A stretch of 64,000 nt of DNA from a virus. The stretch lies in IMG/VR virus record IMGVR_UViG_3300005805_000051, positions 1-64,000 of that record; one strand, written 5' to 3'. Below, in pieces: positions 21,940 through 33,858 of this stretch. The position numbers were made by a program, and so were the translations under genes. Below the pieces are notes generated by a model. The model was not told where the DNA came from. It was given only the letters and a program-made list of their open reading frames with translations, and did no database searches. Position 1 is the first letter of the stretch; each line of letters opens with the position of its first letter.

Positions 21940-22794
21940 CTACACCGTCGACCATTTATCAGCTCCCACCGGCACCACAATACGACCATTATTTGCCCCA
22001 TCACATTTGATGGTGGCGTTTGCCGTGGTAGTCCCGCTCAACAATACTGTACTGCTGAAAGTCGCGGCCCCTGTGTGAGCAGAAGTAGAGAGCGCACTGA
22101 AGGCCCCACTTACTCCGAGGGTACTTGCTGTATTCATCGCACCCGTAACGGACACAGTATTACTGAGAGTGACCGCCCCGGTGATACCTACATTACTTAA
22201 TGCGTTTACCTGACCCGTAACACTGAGGGTGCTGTTCATGACTACCGCACCGGTCAGGGTGGAGTTCGCCAACGCGGTGAATACTCCAGTCACCCCGAGA
22301 GTACTCAGCGCATTCGCCGCCCCCGCAATACTGGCAGTATTGCTCATCGTGACCGCACCCGTCAACGTGGAGTTTGCGGATGCGGTAAAGACGCCAATGG
22401 CCCCTAATGTGCTAGCGGCGTTTACTGCACCGGTAAAGGTTTTTGCTCCAGCAAAACTTTGCGTCGTGGTATCCACCACACCATTTGCGCTGGTATTTGC
22501 TGACGAGAGTCGTTCAAGCGGTACCGTTCCAGACCCCAACGCGCTTGCATTCAGGGTAGTCAGGGAAACGCCGTTTCCTGAAAATGCTGTTGCGGTAACA
22601 TTCCCGGTTGCGTTCACGGTCGCAACGGTAAATGTTCCATTGAGTGTCGCGTTCGCGGTCGATACCCGAGGGGTCGCGTTCGTCGCTAGCTGTAAATAAG
22701 CTGCGGTGTTATCAACATGACTAGTTAGATTATTGGTTGCATCCAACCACACAAAGAATGTGTCGGTATTTGCAACAAAATTCGGTAATGGCAT
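21940..22794 (-). CDS. Fibre protein with low-complexity beta repeats, at the position T4 uses for wac
   Basis: The N-terminal ~55 aa match those of the 633-aa fibre; repeated NxxSTL.VTG units. The ATG at 22794 has a GAGGAG RBS. Confidence 0.75.
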   Translation of the reverse strand: MPLPNFVANTDTFFVWLDATNNLTSHVDNTAAYLQLATNATPRVSTANATLNGTFTVATVNATGNVTATAFSGNGVSLTTLNASALGSGTVPLERLSSANTSANGVVDTTTQSFAGAKTFTGAVNAASTLGAIGVFTASANSTLTGAVTMSNTASIAGAANALSTLGVTGVFTALANSTLTGAVVMNSTLSVTGQVNALSNVGITGAVTLSNTVSVTGAMNTASTLGVSGAFSALSTSAHTGAATFSSTVLLSGTTTANATIKCDGANNGRIVVPVGADKWSTV

Positions 22795-22881
22795 CTCCAC
22801 TCCTCTTCGGAAACGGGCCGAGTGCGCGAATCCTTCATCCGCGCAGGTCTATGCCATATTTAGGGAAGCATCAATGTCCAC

Positions 22882-23940
22882 CTATGCGGGGGACGAGGTG
22901 CCCGTATTTAACGCTTTCTTTGCGAGTCGTTCCGCTTCCAATTCTTCGTTCGACTTGTGAGTTCCGTCAGGACGCAACATCCCTTCCTTTGCCAACCGAT
23001 CAAAAATATCCTTCATCGAGGTTGCTTGTTGTTCCTTATAAGCCGCGGCCCGTGCATAATTCTTTTCGTATTCTTCTGGCCCATAAGCTTGCTTGCAAAT
23101 AACCTTTGCGCGTTCTACAATACTTTCCCCCCACTCAAAGTAAGAATCAAGGAAATCTTTACCTTCCGGGGTATAACGAACATGCTTGCGGATTTCCACC
23201 AATCCATCCTCAATTTTGGGAATGTTCCCAATCAAATAATGAGAAGCGTTGATCAGATTGCCGGGAAGTTTTGCACACTGAATGTCGTTTTCTCCGAACA
23301 CAATCCACGAATAAATTGCTTGAATGACCGCTGACATCGGACGCTTTTTGTCGCGACGGATCGGTGAATCGTAGAGTTCTTCGCTTGTATTGAGAATTAA
23401 AGAATAGTCGTGGTCATCGATATCCATACCCAGTGCTTCCAGCCGTGCATGACCGACTTCGTGATAAATGCCTTCCGCACACCCTTGCATGCTATTAATG
23501 GTCACATACACCGCGTTGACAAACATGCCTTCTTCTTTGCGGTGGGTCTTAGTCGCACTTTTCATTTCAAAATGACCCGACGAACATCCGTTCGCCCCCT
23601 CCCCCATAATCTTTGACCATTTGGGCCAGAATTCATCGAGAAAAAGTTTGAGCATGAGATGCCCGTCTTCCCATGTCCGTAAGTAGGGGTCAAGATTGGC
23701 GGCAATTTCAGGTGTCCAACGGTCATACCCATCCAACATGGGGTCATCGGGGGGAACCAAGGCTGGGTCAACTAAGGGATCGCGCACAACGGCAACTTCT
23801 CCGTCACAAATCGTAAACTTTGAGGTTGGTTTTCGTTTTGTCCAGCCGTATTTTTGATTCAAAAGATACGCAATTGCGTGGGAATCATAACCGTCAGGTT
23901 GAGGTTTACATACGCGCTTCCAGTCAATTTTCATGATCAC
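22882..23940 (-). CDS. HExxH-motif peptide-modifying enzyme (aKG-HExxH-like beta-hydroxylase)
   Basis: AEGIYHEVGHARL followed by YDSPIRRDKKRPMSAVIQAIYSW, the SP.R...RP signature of RiPP-associated HExxH proteins. Late promoter at 23951-23957. Confidence 0.8.
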   Translation of the reverse strand: MIMKIDWKRVCKPQPDGYDSHAIAYLLNQKYGWTKRKPTSKFTICDGEVAVVRDPLVDPALVPPDDPMLDGYDRWTPEIAANLDPYLRTWEDGHLMLKLFLDEFWPKWSKIMGEGANGCSSGHFEMKSATKTHRKEEGMFVNAVYVTINSMQGCAEGIYHEVGHARLEALGMDIDDHDYSLILNTSEELYDSPIRRDKKRPMSAVIQAIYSWIVFGENDIQCAKLPGNLINASHYLIGNIPKIEDGLVEIRKHVRYTPEGKDFLDSYFEWGESIVERAKVICKQAYGPEEYEKNYARAAAYKEQQATSMKDIFDRLAKEGMLRPDGTHKSNEELEAERLAKKALNTGTSSPA

Positions 23941-23949
23941 TCTCCGTGT

Positions 23950-24546
23950 CTATTTAGTGCGTTCTATTGGAATCTGTGGCCGCTCCGCTTCGGAAATAAA
24001 CGACTGAATACTAACTCGTAACAATCGATTTGTCATCACCGGAGTGGTCATATGAAATTCATTTTTATCATTGTGGATCAGCATACCTTGTGTCGGCACC
24101 AAACTGTCCCATCGACCCGTTGACGCATTATGATATTGGAACAGTCCTCCACAAGTAATATCCCACTCAGGATTTGTGTAGATAGTGACTGTTTTTCGTT
24201 CTGTATCAATGGTTTCATCTTTCCCGTTGTCAAAATGACCGGGAATATACGATCCCTTCGTCCACACATACGCCATGATGCGTCCATGTTTGCCATCATT
24301 TACAAAAGTGGATCGTGAGTTACCCAGCCCCATACGGAAAAGATGCTCATACACTGCGTTGGTCAGTCGTTCATTTAACACCAAGCAAAACACTGGTGTA
24401 CTATCTCTGATGATATCAGAACGCCACGAATAATTTGACCACATAACCACCGGTTCGGTGTGACCGCAGGTCAAGACAATACTGGTCGCCCACCGATAGA
24501 CTTCATTACACAATTCTTTGGGAATAGCCGCAGGATATACAATCAT
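23950..24546 (-). CDS. 2OG-Fe(II) oxygenase (prolyl-4-hydroxylase-like)
   Basis: HFD (HxD), Y.N.EW....GG.F, distal H in FHMTTPV, and R.SIQ.F. Confidence 0.88.
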   Translation of the reverse strand: MIVYPAAIPKELCNEVYRWATSIVLTCGHTEPVVMWSNYSWRSDIIRDSTPVFCLVLNERLTNAVYEHLFRMGLGNSRSTFVNDGKHGRIMAYVWTKGSYIPGHFDNGKDETIDTERKTVTIYTNPEWDITCGGLFQYHNASTGRWDSLVPTQGMLIHNDKNEFHMTTPVMTNRLLRVSIQSFISEAERPQIPIERTK

Positions 24547-24573: not shown

Positions 24574-25860
24574 TTAAAAACCAGTTTCTGGCTTATCAAT
24601 ATGGGTGATATCGTTGTGTGAATCGACATGCGCGGTGTCAGTGTGCGCGTCTGAGTGGGAATTACTGAAGGCAATATCTGTATGGGCGTCCGAATGGGAA
24701 TTACTGAACGCAATGTCGGTATGAGCATTCGAGTGCGAATTGCTAAATGCAATGTCGGTGTGTGCGTCTGAGTGTGAATTACTAAAGGCGCGGTCAAAAT
24801 GAGCATCCGAGTGGGAGTTATTGAACGCGCGATCAAAATGAGCATTCGAATGTGACGACCCAAACGCGATGTCGTAATGGGCGTTTGAATGCGACGAACT
24901 AAATGCGCGGTCGTAATGAGCATTCGAATGTGAACTGCCAAACGCGATATCATAATGCGCGTTTGAAAACGCTTGGTCGTAATGTAAATAGAAGAATCCG
25001 TCAATATGAAACGGTTGCCACGGACCAGAACCGTAACATATGAATCCATAATTGGGCCCACCCGGCCATGGCACATTAGAGAACCCCGGATAGCCCCACG
25101 GTGCTAAGTTAGTACCATTGTAACAATTATTGTCGGCATATCCATCGAAGTGCGAAGAACTGAATCCAATATCACTGTGCGATGACCCAAACGCGATGTC
25201 GTAATGGGCGTTTGAATGCGACGAACTAAATGCGATATCGTAATGGGCGTTTGAATGCGACGAACTAAATGCGATATCGTAATGGGCGTTTGAATGCGAA
25301 TTACTAAACGATATATCGGTGTGTGCGTTAGAGTGCGACGAACTAAAGGCAATATCTGTATGGGCATTCGAATGTGAACTGCTGAAGGCCCGATCAAAAT
25401 GAGCATCCGAATGGGAGTTACTGAACGCAATATCCGTATGCGCGTCCGAATGGGAGTTACTAAATGCGATGTCCGTATGGGCGTCTGAATGTGAGTTACT
25501 AAACGCAATATCCGTATGAAGGTCTGTATGCGGAGTATCGTTATGCACCCAGAACTCGTTGCCGCTTTCTGCAAGATAATGTAGCTGGCCGGCCGGCGTC
25601 GACGGCGCATAAGATGTTTCTACCCACACCGATCCTGCAAGTCCCGGTGTTGCTCCGATGAACGGCCCGTCGACATAGCGTTCGACGCCAGTGGAATCGA
25701 TGTAATGAATCGTGTTTGACTCAATCCATAAGCTTCCCTGCAACGCGCCGGCCGGAGTGGCGACCGTGGTGCCAAGAAACCGATATTCTGTATTGGATGA
25801 GTTGCGCCAATGTAGGTAGGTTGACTCTACCCACATTGACCCATTGGATTCATTTGCCAT
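24574..25860 (-). CDS. His/Asp/Ser 13-aa repeat protein A (putative virion needle/fibre and modification substrate)
   Basis: Three GS.W.E N-terminal modules, about 17 H(T/Y/F)DIAFSNSHS(D/N)A units split by a unique centre, and a DKPETGF C-terminus. Late promoter 5 nt before the ATG. Confidence 0.85.
   Translation of the reverse strand: MANESNGSMWVESTYLHWRNSSNTEYRFLGTTVATPAGALQGSLWIESNTIHYIDSTGVERYVDGPFIGATPGLAGSVWVETSYAPSTPAGQLHYLAESGNEFWVHNDTPHTDLHTDIAFSNSHSDAHTDIAFSNSHSDAHTDIAFSNSHSDAHFDRAFSSSHSNAHTDIAFSSSHSNAHTDISFSNSHSNAHYDIAFSSSHSNAHYDIAFSSSHSNAHYDIAFGSSHSDIGFSSSHFDGYADNNCYNGTNLAPWGYPGFSNVPWPGGPNYGFICYGSGPWQPFHIDGFFYLHYDQAFSNAHYDIAFGSSHSNAHYDRAFSSSHSNAHYDIAFGSSHSNAHFDRAFNNSHSDAHFDRAFSNSHSDAHTDIAFSNSHSNAHTDIAFSNSHSDAHTDIAFSNSHSDAHTDTAHVDSHNDITHIDKPETGF
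24640..25520 (-). repeat. 39-nt coding tandem repeats in two arms
   Basis: The periodic units differ mostly at synonymous positions; interrupted at about 24980-25150. Confidence 0.9.
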
Positions 25861-25872: not shown

Positions 25873-27246
25873 TTACCGATTCAAACGAATTACTCCGACA
25901 GCTACTCCCTTGGCAGCATCAGTGTGCGTCACGAGCAACTTGTCATTTGGCAGTCCCATCGCTTGTACCCACTCTTCTAGCGATTTCTTTTCCAAATTAT
26001 CCCCATACACGTATACGATGTGTATTGGGCAAGTTTTCAGAGCTTCTAATCCTGCAAATCGGGGTTCTTCGGACATCTCCACGAATCGCACCGGGCAATA
26101 CACCGGTACTGGTGACTCAAACTTTGTTAGTTCATTATACCATCCGAGATTTTCTAGCGCATCCACAACCCACGTTCCTACACCCACCGCTTGTGCGTCC
26201 TTGATGGCGTCTTCGTTCACATCCACCCCGAAGAGGTTCACATCCGGGCGATGCAACTTGATACGACGCAGTAAATGACCATTCCCACATCCTAGATCGA
26301 CCAGCGCGGCGTTTTCAGGAGCAAATTCTTTGACAGTATCAATAATTGGGGAATGCGCTTGACGCATTGCCGCAAAAGAGGCGAAACCATTTTGAAGCCA
26401 AATTTTCTTAGTCGGCTTCACATACCGACCCTTACGTTCAAAGTGTCGTTTTGCCCGAGGCGGAGCCCAATCCGTGCGCGTCGACACCTTGATGCACGGT
26501 CCGACAATTTCCGCAATCCCATTGACTCCGCTCCACTTCGTTGGCCATGATAACACCGTATCAATCGTATGTGCGATTTCGACGTATCCACGGCGCTGCG
26601 CCATCTGACGCATCTGACGCCCGAGTTCGACCGTGTGTTTACACTGATACGAACACGGTAGATGCGACACCCACCGAATCCCCTTCCACCGCCACAGCAT
26701 ATTCGCTTCGACGGGACCGTCTGCAACCCCCGTGGTCGCGAACTGATTCCATGTCGTATCTACCTGACCGGAACCCCATGTATTCAGAAAGAATTGACGG
26801 CAACACTCGGGATAGCCGAGAATCTCTCCGAGCGCCGCATCATTCTTTGCTAAGTTTGATACGGTTGCAATCTTTGCGACCATTTCAGGGCGCGTGATAA
26901 TCACCCGATAATCCCACGGTTGTGATGGATCAAATCCGTCATTTGAACCTGACCGATAAGACGTAGTGCGATTAATCTGCGTAATCGGAACAACAATCAA
27001 TCCATGCGTCGACGCCCACGTAGAGAGTTCCATGAATCTCTCCGGTGACGCCACTTGATAAGTCGCGGGGCGAATCCCATCCACCACAGACCAACGTTCC
27101 AGTTCTTCCCATGACTGGCTCACCTGTTCAAACAACGGCATCCAATAATCACGTTCAGTCAACGATGACCACGCCCAGCGTGTCCACTCTGGCAATACAG
27201 GTCGGTTCGGGTCAAGTTCAGTAGAAATATTGATCGTTTCACTCAT
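25873..27246 (-). CDS. Fusion of a Cys-motif N-terminal domain and a class I SAM-dependent methyltransferase
   Basis: LGYPECC and HLPCSYQC in the N-terminal half; LVDLGCGNG and GVDVNE in the C-terminal half. Confidence 0.8.
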   Translation of the reverse strand: MSETINISTELDPNRPVLPEWTRWAWSSLTERDYWMPLFEQVSQSWEELERWSVVDGIRPATYQVASPERFMELSTWASTHGLIVVPITQINRTTSYRSGSNDGFDPSQPWDYRVIITRPEMVAKIATVSNLAKNDAALGEILGYPECCRQFFLNTWGSGQVDTTWNQFATTGVADGPVEANMLWRWKGIRWVSHLPCSYQCKHTVELGRQMRQMAQRRGYVEIAHTIDTVLSWPTKWSGVNGIAEIVGPCIKVSTRTDWAPPRAKRHFERKGRYVKPTKKIWLQNGFASFAAMRQAHSPIIDTVKEFAPENAALVDLGCGNGHLLRRIKLHRPDVNLFGVDVNEDAIKDAQAVGVGTWVVDALENLGWYNELTKFESPVPVYCPVRFVEMSEEPRFAGLEALKTCPIHIVYVYGDNLEKKSLEEWVQAMGLPNDKLLVTHTDAAKGVAVGVIRLNR

Positions 27247-27254
27247 AATTAATC

Positions 27255-29198
27255 CTATCGTTTTGCGAGATCAGTATGATCGCCGTGTGGAATATCTCCA
27301 TGCCAGTTTCGCGGGGTAATGTTTGATTCTTCTCTTCCGATATCAAAATGATCTCCGTGGGAACGCTCCACAACTTCCACATCTTCATGTGAATCGCCGT
27401 GCGGAATATTCACGGGTGTTTGCAATAACGCAGTATCTGTGTGATCCCCGTGCGGAATATTCTTTGGAGCGTCAAGTAACGCAGCATCGATATGGTCACC
27501 GTGTGGAATATTCTGTATTTGATTCGCAATCATCAAGTCGGTATGATCACCGTGCGGAATATATTCCGTTCTATTCACAATAGCCGAATCTGTATGATCC
27601 CCGTGTGGAATATTTTGCGGCTCATTTAGGAAGGACGCATCCGTATGATCCCCGTGTGGAATATCTTCAGATTTGTCCAGAATAAATGTATCGGTATGAT
27701 CGCCGTGAGGAACTGTTTGGACAGACAAATCGGTGTGATCCCCGTGCGGTATGTGTGGAATACTGGCATCTGTATGGTCAATGTAGTTATCCGCGTGACC
27801 GGGATGCTCTCCCGTTTGCTGGTGTTGCTCCACAGTCATCTGCTCCCGTTGCTGGAGGTCGAATTGCAACATCGCCACATCTGTATGATCCCCATGCACT
27901 CCGTTTCGACGAATCGATTCAGATTGCATGACATTCACTAATTTTGAATATGCCCGATTCCAATTGCCTTGCGATTCATTGGCAATTTGTATTGCATGAG
28001 CGACATCAATTTCTCCCCCGCGCTCCCATGTCGTATACATGATCGTTTCAATGAGCGGCCGCTGCGGGCTTAATGACAGGGGTTCGTCCCCAACGGCGAC
28101 TAATCGACGCTCGACTTCTTCAAACTGCGATTTGAGTGTTGCACAATGCGAGGATTTCAGACGCCAGTCACCGTCCTTCGTATCGAACGGGACTCCCGTA
28201 CCGGGACAATATCCTTGACACATCAACCAGAACCGGCATCCTTTGCACCCACCATCTTCTTCGGGGGTAACATACAATGAAAGCTGCCGTTCATGAAAAC
28301 GATTGGTCTTAAATTGTGTAATCTGCCATTGACTTTCTTGTCCCGACCCCTCAGACGGCAACCAATCTTTCCCGTCTTTGATGCCACGTGTACAGTTTGA
28401 AGGTTCTCCTTCATTTCCAAGTCCTTGCACCGCAGCGGTACTCCACGGGTCGCAGGCTTTCCAAACGCACATGGACGCGGAATCTTTTCCGCGCAAAAGG
28501 TCAATCAATTCTTCAAAATTCAAGAACTTCAAACTTTTGAGTTCTTCGGTCATCTCCCATAGTTCTACCATGACTTTTGTGATTTGCTCATCTGGCAAGT
28601 AGAACTTCTCGGCGTTGTAATCCATTTCCATGAAATGAATGTTGATGAAGCTGACCCCGATACTATCCAGATAGCGAATCCATTCCTTCATCCGCGGCCA
28701 GCGTTCTTCTGACGCGTTGCCCGCATGGAGCGTCACAATCATAGTCGGACCGATGTTACGATCACCGGTTTCTCGGGCGATTCGTGCAATCTCTTCCACC
28801 GCCCATTCACTCTTTGCGGTTGCGTTCCGTGTCGCTTCGAGCGTTCCCGCCCACCGGGAATCGTTGAGTTCACCGGGACCGTCCATACTGATCCCGACTT
28901 GTGTGCGATACTTCTGAAACAGTTCGATGTGCTTTGGGGTGATGAGGGTTGCATTGGTTTGCAGACCCGTGTAGCCCCACTTCTCATATCCGGCCTTCAA
29001 GAGTTCTTCCAACTCTTCAAACCGAATCAGCAACGGTTCACCACCAAATAACTGCCAAAATCCTTGCGACGTTTTAATGGCTTGCATCACTGCTTCGCGA
29101 TTATACTTCGAAACCGGTTGCACATCACGCGCCGCCTGCTCGTAACAGTATTCGCAACGCAAATTGCAAGTTACCCCAACCGGGAGGACTTCAATCAT
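27255..29198 (-). CDS. Radical SAM/SPASM maturase 2 with a long IPHGDHTD-repeat tail
   Basis: CNLRCEYC, FGGEPL, ISMDGP...ND.R and SPASM-type CKGCRFWLMCQGYCP motifs. Confidence 0.93.
   Translation of the reverse strand: MIEVLPVGVTCNLRCEYCYEQAARDVQPVSKYNREAVMQAIKTSQGFWQLFGGEPLLIRFEELEELLKAGYEKWGYTGLQTNATLITPKHIELFQKYRTQVGISMDGPGELNDSRWAGTLEATRNATAKSEWAVEEIARIARETGDRNIGPTMIVTLHAGNASEERWPRMKEWIRYLDSIGVSFINIHFMEMDYNAEKFYLPDEQITKVMVELWEMTEELKSLKFLNFEELIDLLRGKDSASMCVWKACDPWSTAAVQGLGNEGEPSNCTRGIKDGKDWLPSEGSGQESQWQITQFKTNRFHERQLSLYVTPEEDGGCKGCRFWLMCQGYCPGTGVPFDTKDGDWRLKSSHCATLKSQFEEVERRLVAVGDEPLSLSPQRPLIETIMYTTWERGGEIDVAHAIQIANESQGNWNRAYSKLVNVMQSESIRRNGVHGDHTDVAMLQFDLQQREQMTVEQHQQTGEHPGHADNYIDHTDASIPHIPHGDHTDLSVQTVPHGDHTDTFILDKSEDIPHGDHTDASFLNEPQNIPHGDHTDSAIVNRTEYIPHGDHTDLMIANQIQNIPHGDHIDAALLDAPKNIPHGDHTDTALLQTPVNIPHGDSHEDVEVVERSHGDHFDIGREESNITPRNWHGDIPHGDHTDLAKR
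27270..27900 (-). repeat. HGDHxD repeat tail, mostly 17-aa period
   Basis: Ten HGDH(T/I/F)D motifs plus variants in the translation. Confidence 0.9.
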
Positions 29199-29199
29199 G

Positions 29200-30705
29200 T
29201 TAGTTCTCCATCTTCAGGAGCGCATCATCCACATGATCACCATGCGGAATATTTAATATACCCGCATCGGTATGATCGCCATGTTCGTCACCGTGCGGTA
29301 TAATTCCCGAACCAAAATCCTGATGCGACTCGTTATCTGAATGCATCGCATCCGTGTGATCCCGATGTTCATCCCCATGCGGACGGCTTCCTGTCGATGC
29401 AGGAACAAGATGACTCCCGTCATAATGATCGCCGTGACCAAACCCATACTGATCGATATCTTGTTCACGGAGTTGCCCGTTGAAAATCTTAATCGCGGTA
29501 CTCATCTCACACGCACGACCCTGCGTCCACGCGCGATACATGATTGCTTCAATTTCTTTGCGTTGCGGGTGCAACGACATCGGCGTTTCTCCCAACAGCT
29601 TCAGTCGTCGCTCCCCTTCGGTAAACAGTCCCATCCATGTTTGACAGTAGCTTGACCGCAGACGCCAATCCCCGACCCCGCTTTCTTGACTTGCGTCTCC
29701 CTCACCGGGGCACTGCCCTTTACACATCATCCAGAACCGGCAATCCTTGCAACCCCCCTCTTCTTGTGGAGTCACATACAGCGAAAGCTGTCGCTCGTGA
29801 TGACGTTGACCTTCGAAAGTACCGATTTCCCATTTTGCGTGACGACCCGCACCCTCGGCCGGTAGCCAATCAATCCCGTCTTTATTCGTGCGAGAGCAAT
29901 GGGAGGGCGACCCGTCCCCTTCGAGCCCCTGCACGGCGGAAGTATTCCACGGGTCACAGGAGTGCCATGTACACATGACATTCTCATCTTTTGCGCGAAG
30001 CAGTTCAATAATCGCACGGAAGTTGACTACCTTTGCGTTTTTGAACTTGCTGCTCAAATCCCAAAGCTGTAACAGCGCATCCATCAACTCTTCATGCGGG
30101 AGATACCATTCGTTTGCTTGGTAATCCATCTCCATTGTATGAAAGTTGAAATTGAGCATACCTTTTTCATCAAGGTCAATCAACCACTGCTTCAACCGAG
30201 GCAACTTATCTTTTGCAGCATTTCCCGCATGCAATGTAATGATCAGGCTCGGCACCATGTGCTTGTTGTTCACCTTCTTTGCACGTTCCAACAGCAGATC
30301 GATTGCGCGTTCAGACTTCGCGGTTGCCTTGCGCGTGGCTTCTAAGGTACCGGCCCACCGGGAATCGTTGAGTTCGCCGGGCCCGTCCATACTGATACCC
30401 ACATGTGTGTTGTATTTTTCGAAGAGGTCAACATGCCGCTCAGTGATGAGGGTGGCGTTCGTTTGGACGCCGGTGCTGCCAAACTTCTTGTAACCAATGT
30501 CGAGCAGTTCTTCGAGATGATGGAGCGGTAGCAGGAGAGCTTCGCCTCCAAAGAGTGACCACTGCCCGGTGGACTTATCGATCTGGGCAAGAACGGCCTC
30601 GCGGTTATATTTGTGAACCGGCTGCACATCACGCATCGATTGCTCATAGCAATAGGTACAACGCAAATTGCAGGTCACGCCTACAGGTCGAACTTCAATA
30701 CTCAT
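29200..30705 (-). CDS. Radical SAM/SPASM maturase 1 with a short HGD/HTD tail
   Basis: CNLRCTYC, FGGEAL and CKDCRFWMMCKGQCP motifs; tandem paralogue of 27255-29198. Confidence 0.93.
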   Translation of the reverse strand: MSIEVRPVGVTCNLRCTYCYEQSMRDVQPVHKYNREAVLAQIDKSTGQWSLFGGEALLLPLHHLEELLDIGYKKFGSTGVQTNATLITERHVDLFEKYNTHVGISMDGPGELNDSRWAGTLEATRKATAKSERAIDLLLERAKKVNNKHMVPSLIITLHAGNAAKDKLPRLKQWLIDLDEKGMLNFNFHTMEMDYQANEWYLPHEELMDALLQLWDLSSKFKNAKVVNFRAIIELLRAKDENVMCTWHSCDPWNTSAVQGLEGDGSPSHCSRTNKDGIDWLPAEGAGRHAKWEIGTFEGQRHHERQLSLYVTPQEEGGCKDCRFWMMCKGQCPGEGDASQESGVGDWRLRSSYCQTWMGLFTEGERRLKLLGETPMSLHPQRKEIEAIMYRAWTQGRACEMSTAIKIFNGQLREQDIDQYGFGHGDHYDGSHLVPASTGSRPHGDEHRDHTDAMHSDNESHQDFGSGIIPHGDEHGDHTDAGILNIPHGDHVDDALLKMEN

Positions 30706-30741: not shown

Positions 30742-31938
30742 TTAGAACCCTGTCTCTGGTTTGTCGACATGTGCCACATCGGAGTGCGTATCCGTATGAA
30801 GGTCGGTGTGGGTATCCGTGTGCGCGTTGTTGAATGCGATGTCATAATGCGCGTCAGAATGCGAGTTACTGAAGGCAATATCCGTATGAGCATCCGAATG
30901 CGAGTTACTGAAGGCAATATCCGTATGAGCATCCGAATGTGAGTTACTGAAGGCAATGTCCGTGTGCGCGTCTGAATGCGATGATGCAAACGCGATATCA
31001 TAGTGTGCGTCCGAGTGCGACGACACGAATCCAATATCATAGTGGGCATTTGAGTGCGATGACGCGAATCCAATATCATAGTGGGCATTTGAGTGCGATG
31101 ACCCAAACCCAATATCGTAGTGTTCATCCGTGTGAGAACTGGCAAATGCTTGATATGGCGGCCCATAGTCATTGTAATAATCCGAATGCCCGGGATCGTA
31201 GGGGCCACCACCATTATCAATATATTCATCACCATGACTATTATCAAATGGTATATCATAATGATCGTCAGCATGTGAATTAGAAAATGCGATATCATAG
31301 TGGGCATCCGAATGTGATGACCCAAAGGCGATATCATAATGAGCATTTGAATGTGACGACGCAAACGCAATATCGTAATGAGCATTCGAATGTGACGACC
31401 CAAACGCAATATCGTAATGCGCGTCGGAGTGGGAATTGCTAAACGCACGGTCAAAATGAGCATCCGAGTGCGAGTTGTTAAATGCAATATCCGTGTGGGC
31501 GTTTGAGTGCGAATTACTGAACGCAATATCCGTATGGGCGTCTGAGTGTGAGTTGCTGAACGCGATATCGGTATGCACATCCGAGTGCGTGATCACGGAG
31601 GTGTCAGTGTGCAAGTCCGTGTGTGCGATGTCATCATGGGCATAGCGTTCTGCCCCTGACGCATCAACCCAGTGGAACCCACTGGCATGTGGAGAGGTGC
31701 TATCGGCCCAGATTGACCCTTGCGTTGCTCCTGCGGGTGACGCGACGGTCGGCCCGTAGACATAGCGTTCCGTGCCTGATTCGTCGATGTAGTGGAAGTT
31801 GTTGCTTTCCACCCAGATACTTCCCTTTGTGGCGCCGGCCGGCGTCGCGACCGAGGTACCTAAGAACCGATACTCGGTGTTACTTGCGTTCCGCCAGTGA
31901 AAGTAAGTGCCTTCAACCCAAATAGAGCCGTTCGCCAT
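30742..31938 (-). CDS. His/Asp/Ser 13-aa repeat protein B (paralogue of A)
   Basis: Same GSIWVE modules, about 17 repeats, a different centre and the same DKPETGF end; directly follows the tail fibre gene. Confidence 0.85.
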   Translation of the reverse strand: MANGSIWVEGTYFHWRNASNTEYRFLGTSVATPAGATKGSIWVESNNFHYIDESGTERYVYGPTVASPAGATQGSIWADSTSPHASGFHWVDASGAERYAHDDIAHTDLHTDTSVITHSDVHTDIAFSNSHSDAHTDIAFSNSHSNAHTDIAFNNSHSDAHFDRAFSNSHSDAHYDIAFGSSHSNAHYDIAFASSHSNAHYDIAFGSSHSDAHYDIAFSNSHADDHYDIPFDNSHGDEYIDNGGGPYDPGHSDYYNDYGPPYQAFASSHTDEHYDIGFGSSHSNAHYDIGFASSHSNAHYDIGFVSSHSDAHYDIAFASSHSDAHTDIAFSNSHSDAHTDIAFSNSHSDAHTDIAFSNSHSDAHYDIAFNNAHTDTHTDLHTDTHSDVAHVDKPETGF

Positions 31939-31956: not shown

Positions 31957-33858
31957 CTATGGTTGTAGTGTAGCACGAAGTGCTGCAACTTCCGCAGACA
32001 ATTCTTTGATTGCTGCAACCAGATATGGCACTAATCCTTGATATGCCATGACTTTAGCATCGTTGAGGTCTTCGGATTCAATTGTGTGAACTAATTCGGG
32101 GAAGACCCGTTCTACATCTTGAGCGATAAGGAATGACCGCGTAACATCCGCGTCATCACCCGTGAACCGCCCCATCACCGTGCGAAGAGTCTGTAGTCGT
32201 GAAGTGGCGTTTGAAATTGGCTCAGTTAAAATCTTTGTCCGTTCATCGGACATCGCCGACCAAGCGGTGGCCCCATTAACTAACTGGACACCACCAGAAC
32301 CCCCAACCCCCGGATTTGCATACGCTCGTAGTACTGGAGCGGCCCCTGTACCATAGACATCAATGACCCATGCGTGCGCCTGATCCGAGGCGCGTTCCCA
32401 TCTAATCTCCCCACCTTCGATCGATGTATCTCCGCGACGCAACACAAACCCGGTTGATACACCTTCATACGCGACGGTGGCGGTCGTAGCAGAAGAGGCG
32501 CTTCCCGCACTTCCCGTGATGTTGATGCCCCATGTTCCAGAAGCTCCAGCTCCGCCGGTGGAAGGCGCACCCACCGTGTTGTAACTGATGGTCTTACCCG
32601 CACTTCCATTATAGCTGGTGCCTGATGCCTCACCAGCACCACCATTGTTAAATATGATGGCGTTGGATACTTGAGTTGCTTGCGCCGCGGTCGTCGCACT
32701 AGTGGCGGTCGTGGCGGTTGTGGCACTTCCCGCACTTCCCGTAATATTAATGCCCCAAGTTCCAGAAGCCCCAGTTCCGCCCGTGGAAGGCGCGCCTACC
32801 GTATTATAACTGACCGTGATAGCTCCCGATCCATTATACGTCGTCCCTGACGCGGCTCCACTTCCTCCGTTGTTGAAGGTTACCGCGTTGAGGTTGCTTC
32901 CAAGTGTAACACCTGAAATGGTTGAGGCTGCGAGCTTACTGACAGCAATCGCAGCACTCCCGCTGATGTCTGCGTTAACGATACCTCCCGTCAACGACAA
33001 CTTACTATATGCAATCGCCGCGGAGGCGCTGACGTCTCCATTGACAATCGTACCATCAGCAATCATTGAACTTGTAACTTTTCCTGCCCCAATGGTAGTC
33101 GCTCCAGTACCAGAGATGGTCACATCCCCGGACATAGCAAGAGCTTCAATCCCACCGGTCGCATTCCCTAGTAACAACCGACCGGCGCTAGTGGTCGCCA
33201 GCTTGTCGTGCGACAACGATCCGGCAGCAATCCGTGCGGCGGGCAAAGTACCATTTGAAATATTACTTGCGTTAACCGTCGTAATGTTGATGCCGTTTCC
33301 GGTCAGGAATCCCGCAGCTCCTGCGCTTACATTCGACGTCGCATAGATGTTGACTGCGTTCATGTTACCAGCAGTGGCCGTCACATTCCCTGACGCAGTA
33401 ATGGTGCCAGATGCAGTGATGAACCCCGTGGCGATGACATTCCCGGTCGCGACATTGCCGGTCGCACTGATAGTCGTGGTGTTCAGTGCAGTCGTGTTGA
33501 CATTCTGTGTCGCGGTGATGTTCAACGCACCCGTGATGTTCGCGCTCAGTACCAAGTTGCGCGTCACCGACAAGGAGTTGCTCATCGTCACATCACCGGT
33601 AATCGCCACATTCGCATTAAACGTCGCAATGCCGTTGATGGTCGTATTTCCGTTAACGGACAGTACATTACTGGTCGTCAGATTGACAATCGTTGCAGTC
33701 CCATTCAGACTAACATTGCCAGTTGAAACGCTCGGAGTCGCATTCTGTGCAACCTGCAAATAGACGCTCGTGTTCGCAACATGGCTAATGAGATTATTTG
33801 TCGCATCAAACCATGTATTGAAACTATCGGTCGTCTGAATAATGGAAGGTAACGGCAT
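31957..33858 (-). CDS. Tail fibre with a C-terminal intramolecular chaperone (peptidase S74-like)
   Basis: SDERTK cleavage motif, IAQDVERVFPELV, Y..LVPYLVAAIKEL coiled coil, and an internal ~60-aa duplication. Confidence 0.9.
   Translation of the reverse strand: MPLPSIIQTTDSFNTWFDATNNLISHVANTSVYLQVAQNATPSVSTGNVSLNGTATIVNLTTSNVLSVNGNTTINGIATFNANVAITGDVTMSNSLSVTRNLVLSANITGALNITATQNVNTTALNTTTISATGNVATGNVIATGFITASGTITASGNVTATAGNMNAVNIYATSNVSAGAAGFLTGNGINITTVNASNISNGTLPAARIAAGSLSHDKLATTSAGRLLLGNATGGIEALAMSGDVTISGTGATTIGAGKVTSSMIADGTIVNGDVSASAAIAYSKLSLTGGIVNADISGSAAIAVSKLAASTISGVTLGSNLNAVTFNNGGSGAASGTTYNGSGAITVSYNTVGAPSTGGTGASGTWGINITGSAGSATTATTATSATTAAQATQVSNAIIFNNGGAGEASGTSYNGSAGKTISYNTVGAPSTGGAGASGTWGINITGSAGSASSATTATVAYEGVSTGFVLRRGDTSIEGGEIRWERASDQAHAWVIDVYGTGAAPVLRAYANPGVGGSGGVQLVNGATAWSAMSDERTKILTEPISNATSRLQTLRTVMGRFTGDDADVTRSFLIAQDVERVFPELVHTIESEDLNDAKVMAYQGLVPYLVAAIKELSAEVAALRATLQP

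Follow-up and report, generated by a model that had tools for sequence, protein, structure and literature searches.

A phage radical SAM enzyme ending in an array of HGDHxD motifs that resemble the His-x-Asp repeats of its neighbouring proteins

Why should a radical S-adenosylmethionine (SAM) enzyme end in a long array of the same kind of His-x-Asp (HxD) triplet that fills the repeat proteins encoded beside it? This question is raised by a window of 64,000 nucleotides that opens a phage contig of 109 kb from IMG/VR (IMGVR_UViG_3300005805_000051), whose structural genes are T4-like. The enzyme, rSAM 2 (647 aa; positions 27255-29198, minus strand), consists of a folded core (residues 1-430) followed by a C-terminal tail (residues 435-647; 27258-27896, minus strand). 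It lies in a cassette together with a paralogue, rSAM 1 (501 aa; 29200-30705, minus strand; 53% identity to rSAM 2), and two paralogous repeat proteins, A (24574-25860, minus strand) and B (30742-31938, minus strand), the presumed substrates, which contain 34 and 39 HxD triplets, respectively. A sequence-only reading of this DNA had noticed the shared triplet and had offered three functions for the tails, namely self-modified fused cores, metal-delivery arms or co-assembly handles. Our analysis shows that the tails are real, selected, disordered and multivalent arrays of a family-specific linear motif, (P)HGD/HGDHxD, which resembles the substrate motif; compared to the HxD triplet of the neighbouring repeat proteins, this motif is a more uniform variant peculiar to the enzyme. 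As to what the tails do, we favour a tethered substrate mimic or docking arm, a reading to which we would give a probability of roughly 40%.

The C-terminal tails and their motif

The tail of rSAM 2 comprises about 215 residues and contains 12 HGD triplets (at residues 435, 485, 498, 515, 532, 549, 566, 583, 600, 614, 633 and 638), 10 of which are part of the longer motif HGDH[T/I/F]D. The distances between successive HGD triplets are 50, 13, 17, 17, 17, 17, 17, 17, 14, 19 and 5 residues, six of them being exactly 17 aa, and both the ten motifs with their prevailing 17-residue spacing and the location of the tail were thus correctly given by the sequence-only reading. When the tail residues were shuffled 20,000 times with preservation of composition, HGDH[T/I/F]D occurred on average 0.00065 times and never more than once, compared to 10 observed copies, while HxD triplets, of which the tail has 25, reached a mean of only 3.9. 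His and Asp make up 12.9% and 13.8% of the tail, respectively, but 1.4% and 4.2% of the core. In an AlphaFold2 (AF2) model based on a 120-sequence alignment, the predicted local distance difference test (pLDDT) score was above 90 for residues 1-430, between 56 and 68 for residues 431-460, and below 50 for residues 463-647, and the tail is predicted to be intrinsically disordered. The tail of rSAM 1 (residues 424-501; 29203-29436, minus strand) is shorter, as had been described, and has 5 HGD triplets within the motifs HGDHYD (residue 424), HGDEHRDHTD (443), HGDEHGDHTD (471), which had been overlooked before, and HGDHVD (488).

At the DNA level the 17-aa repeat of rSAM 2 is underlain by a 51-bp period, detected by Tandem Repeats Finder as two overlapping arrays at 27387-27614 with matches of only 74-76%. 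Such a period would be compatible with a near-neutral expansion of low-complexity sequence, in which one ancestral C-terminal HxDHxD matters and rSAM 2 tolerates additional copies that add no function. However, the IPHGDHTD unit, present six times in identical form in the tail, has 19-23 of 24 bases in common between copies and differs at synonymous sites, so that the motif is kept up by selection acting on the protein and does not stem from recent slippage; synonymous sites and spacers have diverged, yet IPHGDHTD has remained intact in six units. The spacers themselves had been characterized as divergent, which holds in part, since homologues have a common D-[AST]-A-[ILV]-[ILV]-N-[IV]-P ahead of the next HGD.

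The copy number of the motif was analyzed in the 120 best database homologues of rSAM 2 (44-67% identity), at least one HGD being found after the core in 102 of them and at least two HxD in 99. The number of HGD copies ranges from 0 to 19 and follows protein length, with minimal enzymes ending in a single terminal motif, e.g. ...GGYHGDHTDA or ...GYHGDSG. Between related phages with two rSAM genes the long arm has switched paralogue: rSAM 2 has 12 HGD here and 2 in its orthologue at locus L006, while rSAM 1 has 5 here and 13 in its L006 orthologue (L006:9379-12768 versus 27255-30705 of the window), as if the valency rather than the position of the tail mattered. The range of 0-19 copies among close relatives and the switch between paralogues are features that a near-neutral expansion would also produce. 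Long arrays, however, have evolved several times, in separate lineages (e.g. P0030, P0047 and L006), and together with the conserved units described above this makes neutral expansion, in our view, quite an improbable explanation.

Tails and presumed substrates have the H-x-D triplet, a frequently preceding Pro (PHGD) and back-to-back HxDHxD in common. They differ in that x is Gly in 59% of the tail motifs but in 14% of the substrate motifs, and in that the Asp is followed by His (HGDH) in 33% and 9%, respectively. The uniformity of the tail is independent of the x preferred by the local substrate and holds across enzymes that are only 30-40% identical, and the tail motif is therefore under selection of its own. 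It also seems to be restricted to this family. When the 216-aa tail was scanned against Pfam with E values up to 10, the only hits, DUF6961 and VASt, were at chance level, and an exhaustive phmmer search against 1.84 billion proteins gave 15 hits, of which the six inspected were unrelated periodic low-complexity repeats and another, P0029, was an already known rSAM homologue; no other protein family with this tail was found among the inspected hits of that search. Likewise, HGD motifs are almost never present in the GYPxCC and HExxH proteins of related loci (see below).

The distribution of the tails was compared between a viral set of 57 rSAM sequences (from IMG/VR contigs, Thermus phages and the window) and a cellular set of 26 sequences from bacterial and archaeal genomes. 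Absence of the tails in homologues was part of what, according to the sequence-only reading, would contradict it, and the outcome is divided: at least two HxD follow the core in 51 of the 57 viral enzymes, whereas this is the case for only 2 of the 26 cellular ones. To explain the tail on a tree built from the catalytic cores, at least 7 changes are required; it is present on both sides of the midpoint root, and one large cellular clade (20 of 21 sequences) is tail-less. Since nearly all cellular homologues lack them, the tails are dispensable for the core catalysis of the family. In haloarchaea, the rSAM homologues (e.g. L108:5980-7554 and L111:5971-7452, from genomes or a plasmid) have retained a single conserved I/L-H-A/V-D-S motif within long acidic tails, and in two of three of them Cys-rich C-termini (CGCGSGCGCG and CCGDECDC) stand in place of the HGD array.

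These properties of the tail bear on the main rival to a docking arm, according to which the tail is a metal-binding arm. Its HGDHxD (HxxHxD) units would be metal sites, as in the variable His-rich tails of metallochaperones, and would gather Fe, Zn or Ni for the three Fe-S clusters of the enzyme or load the His/Asp-rich repeat proteins, so that the substrate likeness would reflect shared metal chemistry and not recognition. The tails of UreE, SlyD and HypB are His-rich, disordered, variable and dispensable, and the rSAM tail, with 13% His and 14% Asp, a C-terminal position, predicted disorder, variable length and dispensability in many relatives, is like them in these properties, although not by homology. 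In addition, HxD is the metal-binding dyad of the 2-oxoglutarate (2OG)-Fe(II) oxygenases, and both the uniform HGDH spacing, which is unlike that of the substrates, and the replacement of the HGD array by Cys-rich C-termini in the two haloarchaeal homologues favour a metal arm. However, no Pfam metal-binding family matched the tail at E values up to 10, the Pro and hydrophobic residues conserved on the flanks of the motif point to a recognized linear motif rather than to a compositional metal sponge, and cellular enzymes with the same three clusters do without the tail. The HGDH unit presumably also resembles the histidine triad (HxxHxH) of the streptococcal Pht proteins, a likeness for which no Pfam match to the tail was obtained at the same threshold. 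Altogether we regard a metal arm as less probable than not, but as only somewhat less probable than a docking arm.

The enzyme core and its gene partners

The core of rSAM 2 matches the Pfam family Radical_SAM (PF04055) with an E value of 4.7e-13 and 50.1 bits (cutoff 29.5), and its CxxxCxxC motif (Cys 11, 15 and 18), which rSAM 1 also has, is conserved in at least 90% of the 120 homologues. The C-terminal half contains eight conserved Cys, seven of which (C244, C249, C269, C321, C327, C331 and C352) are invariant and one (C318) nearly so in the same homologues. The arrangement C318-x2-C321-x5-C327-x3-C331 corresponds to the SPASM pattern CxxCx5Cx3C and completes a full set of SPASM Cys for two auxiliary [4Fe-4S] clusters; a SPASM model was not among the Pfam results at E values up to 0.01. 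The best fold matches of the AF2 model in Foldseek were the anaerobic sulfatase-maturating enzyme (anSME; 4k37, TMt 0.72) and the triceptide synthase ChlB (9gmc, TMt 0.70; 0.66-0.70 over all ChlB matches), followed by CteB and SuiB, and the model superposes on anSME, ChlB and CteB. Cys motif, Pfam score and fold place rSAM 2 in the radical SAM superfamily, and the C-terminal Cys set and the superposition assign it to the SPASM enzymes. At the level of individual families the top NCBIfam profile was the cyclophane maturase AmcB with 67.6-68.8 bits (cutoff 425), the other curated cyclophane and triceptide maturase families (YhhB, XyeB, GrrM and FxsB) scored lower and none of the five was reached, and the anSME family TIGR03942 gave 64.8 and 68 bits (cutoff 349.45), which excludes membership. 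Because of the conserved Cys sets, the fold matches to anSME and ChlB and the NCBIfam scores far below the cutoffs, rSAM 1 and rSAM 2 are best described as an unclassified branch of the peptide- or protein-modifying SPASM enzymes.

Gene neighbourhoods were read from IMG/VR and GTDB loci, in which open reading frames (ORFs) were called mechanically with the longest start taken; the loci in viral contigs were obtained with an alignment-based search, while rSAM 2 as a single query returned none. They revealed a conserved module of three genes, encoding an HxD-rich protein or peptide, the rSAM/SPASM enzyme and a DUF483-like GYPxCC protein in this order, which is present in about 55 viral contigs, in the Thermus phages phiMa, phiLo and Cumys, and in 26 cellular loci. 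An HxD-rich ORF adjoins the rSAM gene for 54 of the 57 viral sequences, including both rSAMs of the window, and a GYPxCC/DUF483 gene stands beside it in 53 of 57 viral and 25 of 26 cellular cases, sometimes being fused to the rSAM. The Thermus phages phiMa and phiLo have the same gene set, the phiMa rSAM carrying an HGD-rich tail. From the shared triplet the sequence-only reading had concluded that enzymes and repeat proteins form one system, and this conclusion is now strongly supported by gene order in viruses, Thermus phages, bacteria and archaea.

The partner encoded in the window (25873-27246, minus strand) combines a GYPxCC (DUF483-like) domain with a class I methyltransferase (Pfam DUF483 at 2e-4, together with methyltransferase models) and was modelled by AF2 with a mean pLDDT of 94. 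Five residues (C148, C149, D163, R191 and C202) are invariant and two more (H195 and C198) almost so, which suggests that they mark a metal or catalytic site. In fold searches with the complete model the methyltransferase domain filled the lists of matches, which held no fold match for the N-terminal GYPxCC domain, and a search of the ESM Atlas returned DUF483 viral clusters only.

The HxD proteins of the module vary considerably. Protein B starts with a triple GSxW(V/I)E module that precedes its HxD triplets, and the same triple module (as GSxWIEG) is found at the N-terminus of protein A and of phiMa_29, which has 53 HxD; in total, N-terminal GSxW(V/I)E modules occur in the HxD proteins of 43 ORFs across the loci. 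The triple module was also observed in neighbours of the haloarchaeal rSAM genes at L108 and L111. In phiLo, a protein of 474 aa with 72 HxD and without the GSxW module (phiLo_137; L004:11801-13225) is encoded about 4 kb downstream of the rSAM on the opposite strand, so that a substrate gene may also lie apart from the rSAM gene and in the opposite orientation. At the other extreme of size, three Bryobacterales loci (L091:5713-5946, L092:5758-5967 and L094:5755-5946) have ORFs of 63-77 aa that consist almost wholly of PHxD repeats directly upstream of the rSAM and that look like the classic precursors of ribosomally made, modified peptides. In these three loci the rSAM is fused to the GYPxCC domain (658-686 aa), as it also is in L096. 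Two other bacterial HxD partners (L088:8778-9200 and L084:5248-5826) have a twin-arginine-like signal (RRDLLRAG... and RRALIAAGWAAP...) ahead of the HxD region, which suggests exported products in cells.

Viral substrates of 700-1,400 aa carry an HxD-dense C-terminal module on proteins with concanavalin A (ConA)-like lectin or glycine-rich domains. The examples L052:5461-9726, L021:5459-8998, L017:5762-8995 and L057:6355-9513 (1,050-1,420 aa) have Laminin_G_3 or Gly_rich_2 domains and a C-terminal HxD module of about 200-680 residues that stops just before the rSAM gene, which suggests that receptor-binding proteins are the modified targets. The number of HxD per protein rises from 34-39 in proteins A and B to as many as 93 in related substrates. 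As HxD is the sole feature common to all partner proteins, it is the likely target of the enzymes.

According to another reading the tail is itself a true fused core, and the enzyme modifies its own tail to yield an arm with a function of its own, for instance after release or on the virion. Substrate-like sequence at the C-terminus of the modifying enzyme is characteristic of borosin-type fusions (OphMA), and the rSAM tail, a flexible extension of the catalytic domain at its C-terminus, is built of substrate-type HxD, often as PHGD, like the bacterial PHxD precursors. However, borosins lack a separate precursor, whereas all tail-bearing enzymes in loci not cut at a contig end keep a separate HxD-rich gene, and the sole tail-bearing enzyme without one (L054) begins at base 1 of its contig. 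Moreover, the copy number of the tail motif varies and minimal tails consist of a single motif, the motif is uniform and not core-like and diverse, and no protease or export gene was seen in the cassette. Because complete loci retain the separate substrate gene and the tail motif is uniform and does not copy the local repeat, we consider a fused core, as the main product, unlikely and place it last among the three functions originally offered.

Two accessory genes and two fibre genes complete the cassette and its borders, all on the minus strand. A 2OG-Fe(II) oxygenase, presumably a tailoring enzyme (23950-24546; Pfam 2OG-FeII_Oxy_3, 1.9e-5, just under the cutoff), is restricted to this window among the loci scanned, while homologues of an HExxH protein (22882-23940), which resembles the aKG-HExxH peptide beta-hydroxylases (NCBIfam TIGR04267, 6.3e-7; 29.6 bits, just below the cutoff of 40), occur in a minority of related loci. 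The cassette is flanked by a fibre gene with an S74 chaperone domain (31957-33858) on one side and a second fibre-like gene (21940-22800) on the other, and a megablast search of its DNA against 50,697 phage records gave no match.

A further proposal is that the module modifies DNA and not protein, the His/Asp tails then being unrelated to any protein substrate. A preprint from 2024 on Thermus phages, in which the third protein of the module is called unknown, suggested DNA modification and reported that rSAM/DUF483 homologues lie near deazapurine DNA-modification genes in some cyanobacteria (10.1101/2024.08.14.607894). A methyltransferase fused to the DUF483 domain, as found here, and about 10 cellular loci without an obvious HxD ORF would be compatible with this proposal. 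In contrast, the HxD-rich ORFs adjoining the viral rSAM genes and the short PHxD peptides in bacteria point to a protein substrate, the closest folds and profiles are those of peptide- or protein-modifying SPASM enzymes, and the accessory HExxH protein resembles a peptide beta-hydroxylase. DNA modification therefore appears highly improbable to us.

A docking arm for a multi-site maturase

Our inferences on the substrates, their chemistry and docking by the tail are as follows. The rSAM enzyme, with its GYPxCC partner, would abstract hydrogen within the HxD sites, and the most plausible outcome would be a three-residue cyclophane of the triceptide type linking His to the C-beta of Asp, with epimerisation or another radical outcome as alternatives. 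A cyclophane is suggested because His-C2 to X3-C-beta links are established elsewhere and because cyclophane synthases are among the closest matches in both profile and fold. The HGD/HxD motifs of the tail may sit in the site by which the enzyme or the GYPxCC partner recognizes HxD, or the tail may pair with the HxD array of the substrate, possibly through shared metal ions. In either case the maturase would thereby stay attached to virion proteins that are very large and have many sites, and the tail may itself become modified as a by-product.

Several observations weigh against a docking arm. In the AF2 model of rSAM 2 none of the tail motifs was docked with confidence, and most cellular enzymes as well as a viral clade (L012-L014, L022 and L024) work without a tail. 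The contrast in tails between viruses and cells comprises only 3-4 independent pairs, too few for statistics, and the relatedness of the sequences is ignored in the weak correlation between the HxD counts of tails and substrates (rho 0.37), which by itself would favour a role of valency. About 10 cellular loci have no HxD-dense ORF within 6 kb, one of them, L084, having upstream an ORF that ends in two HxD. Finally, the uniform HGDHTD could itself be a metal site (HxxHxD) instead of mimicking a substrate.

Relation to known systems and significance

The closest described system is the HXS antiphage system (HxsA-D). According to the abstract and maturation section of its description, an effector with His-x-Ser repeats is matured there by two rSAM enzymes together with a small partner, and SHRSS gains 8 Da in mass (PMC13128918). 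Both systems thus combine a protein with tandem His-x-small-residue repeats, two adjacent rSAM genes and a modification, here a putative one, on a His-containing motif. In the parts of the source named above, however, the HXS effector is a bacterial defence protein with only five repeats of His-x-Ser type, the partner is HxsD rather than a DUF483/GYPxCC protein, and substrate-like enzyme tails are not mentioned. HxsB and HxsC were not among the 25 best NCBIfam hits of the rSAMs (with E values down the list to 1.9e-7); given also the DUF483 partner and the His-x-Asp repeats, the enzymes described here do not belong to HXS.

A second relationship concerns the triceptide synthases HaaB, YhhB, HtkB and ChlB (PMC11499958; PDB 9gm3/9gmc), rSAM/SPASM enzymes acting on aromatic-X-X motifs that are often repeated. 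On the motifs HAA, HNR and HTK, cyclophanes linking His-C2 to X3-C-beta have been described (PMC11499958), and the H-x-D of proteins A and B fits the aromatic-X-X form of triceptide substrates. On the other hand, the profile scores are far below the cutoffs (68 versus 425 bits), and His at position 1 with Asp at X3 is not among the described motifs that we found. The putative crosslinks would moreover be formed on proteins with up to about 90 sites instead of short peptides, and with an obligatory DUF483 partner. anSME (PDB 4k36-4k39), the best structural match, is likewise a SPASM enzyme without an N-terminal peptide-recognition domain and acts on a short motif of a folded protein. It has neither the tail nor a DUF483 partner, the TIGR03942 scores of 65-68 bits are far from the cutoff of 349, and there is no sulfatase in the cassette and no C/S-x-P-x-R motif in the neighbourhood.

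The same three genes are found in the Thermus phages Cumys and phiMa, whose rSAMs are 38-39% identical to rSAM 2 (10.1101/2024.08.14.607894). The three-gene module had thus already been noted in the 2024 preprint. The word 'histidine' is absent from its text, and the HxD repeats and HGD tails are apparently undescribed there. Neither the tails nor HxD repeats in connection with rSAM enzymes were described in any paper found in our literature searches, in which AmcB and crosslinks in phage fibres were among the topics.

The module is abundant, with hundreds of metagenomic homologues and occurrences in T4-like marine phages, Thermus phages, and the prophages or chromosomes of many phyla including haloarchaea. 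As no chemistry has been assigned to it in the literature searched, it provides a tractable gene set for finding a new modification of His and Asp, and the system would allow a radical enzyme to be tested on a very large, multi-site substrate. The same system would lend itself to asking whether modification or metal binding shapes the stability of phage fibres or host recognition. Tentatively, and as a proposition more likely to fail than to hold in full, the enzymes may be the first natural rSAM maturases with a tethered copy of their own substrate motif, belonging to a widespread and undescribed system of His-x-Asp protein stapling which phages would direct at dozens of sites in the C-terminal modules of their fibre or receptor-binding proteins, and bacteria and archaea at short PHxD peptides, the tail serving as an in-cis docking or pseudo-substrate device for multi-site processing. 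If this is true, the built-in substrate-like arm would represent a mode of substrate recognition that we have not found described for rSAM maturases, and phages would be treating dozens of His-x-Asp sites in proteins of their own virions with radical chemistry in the style of peptide natural products.

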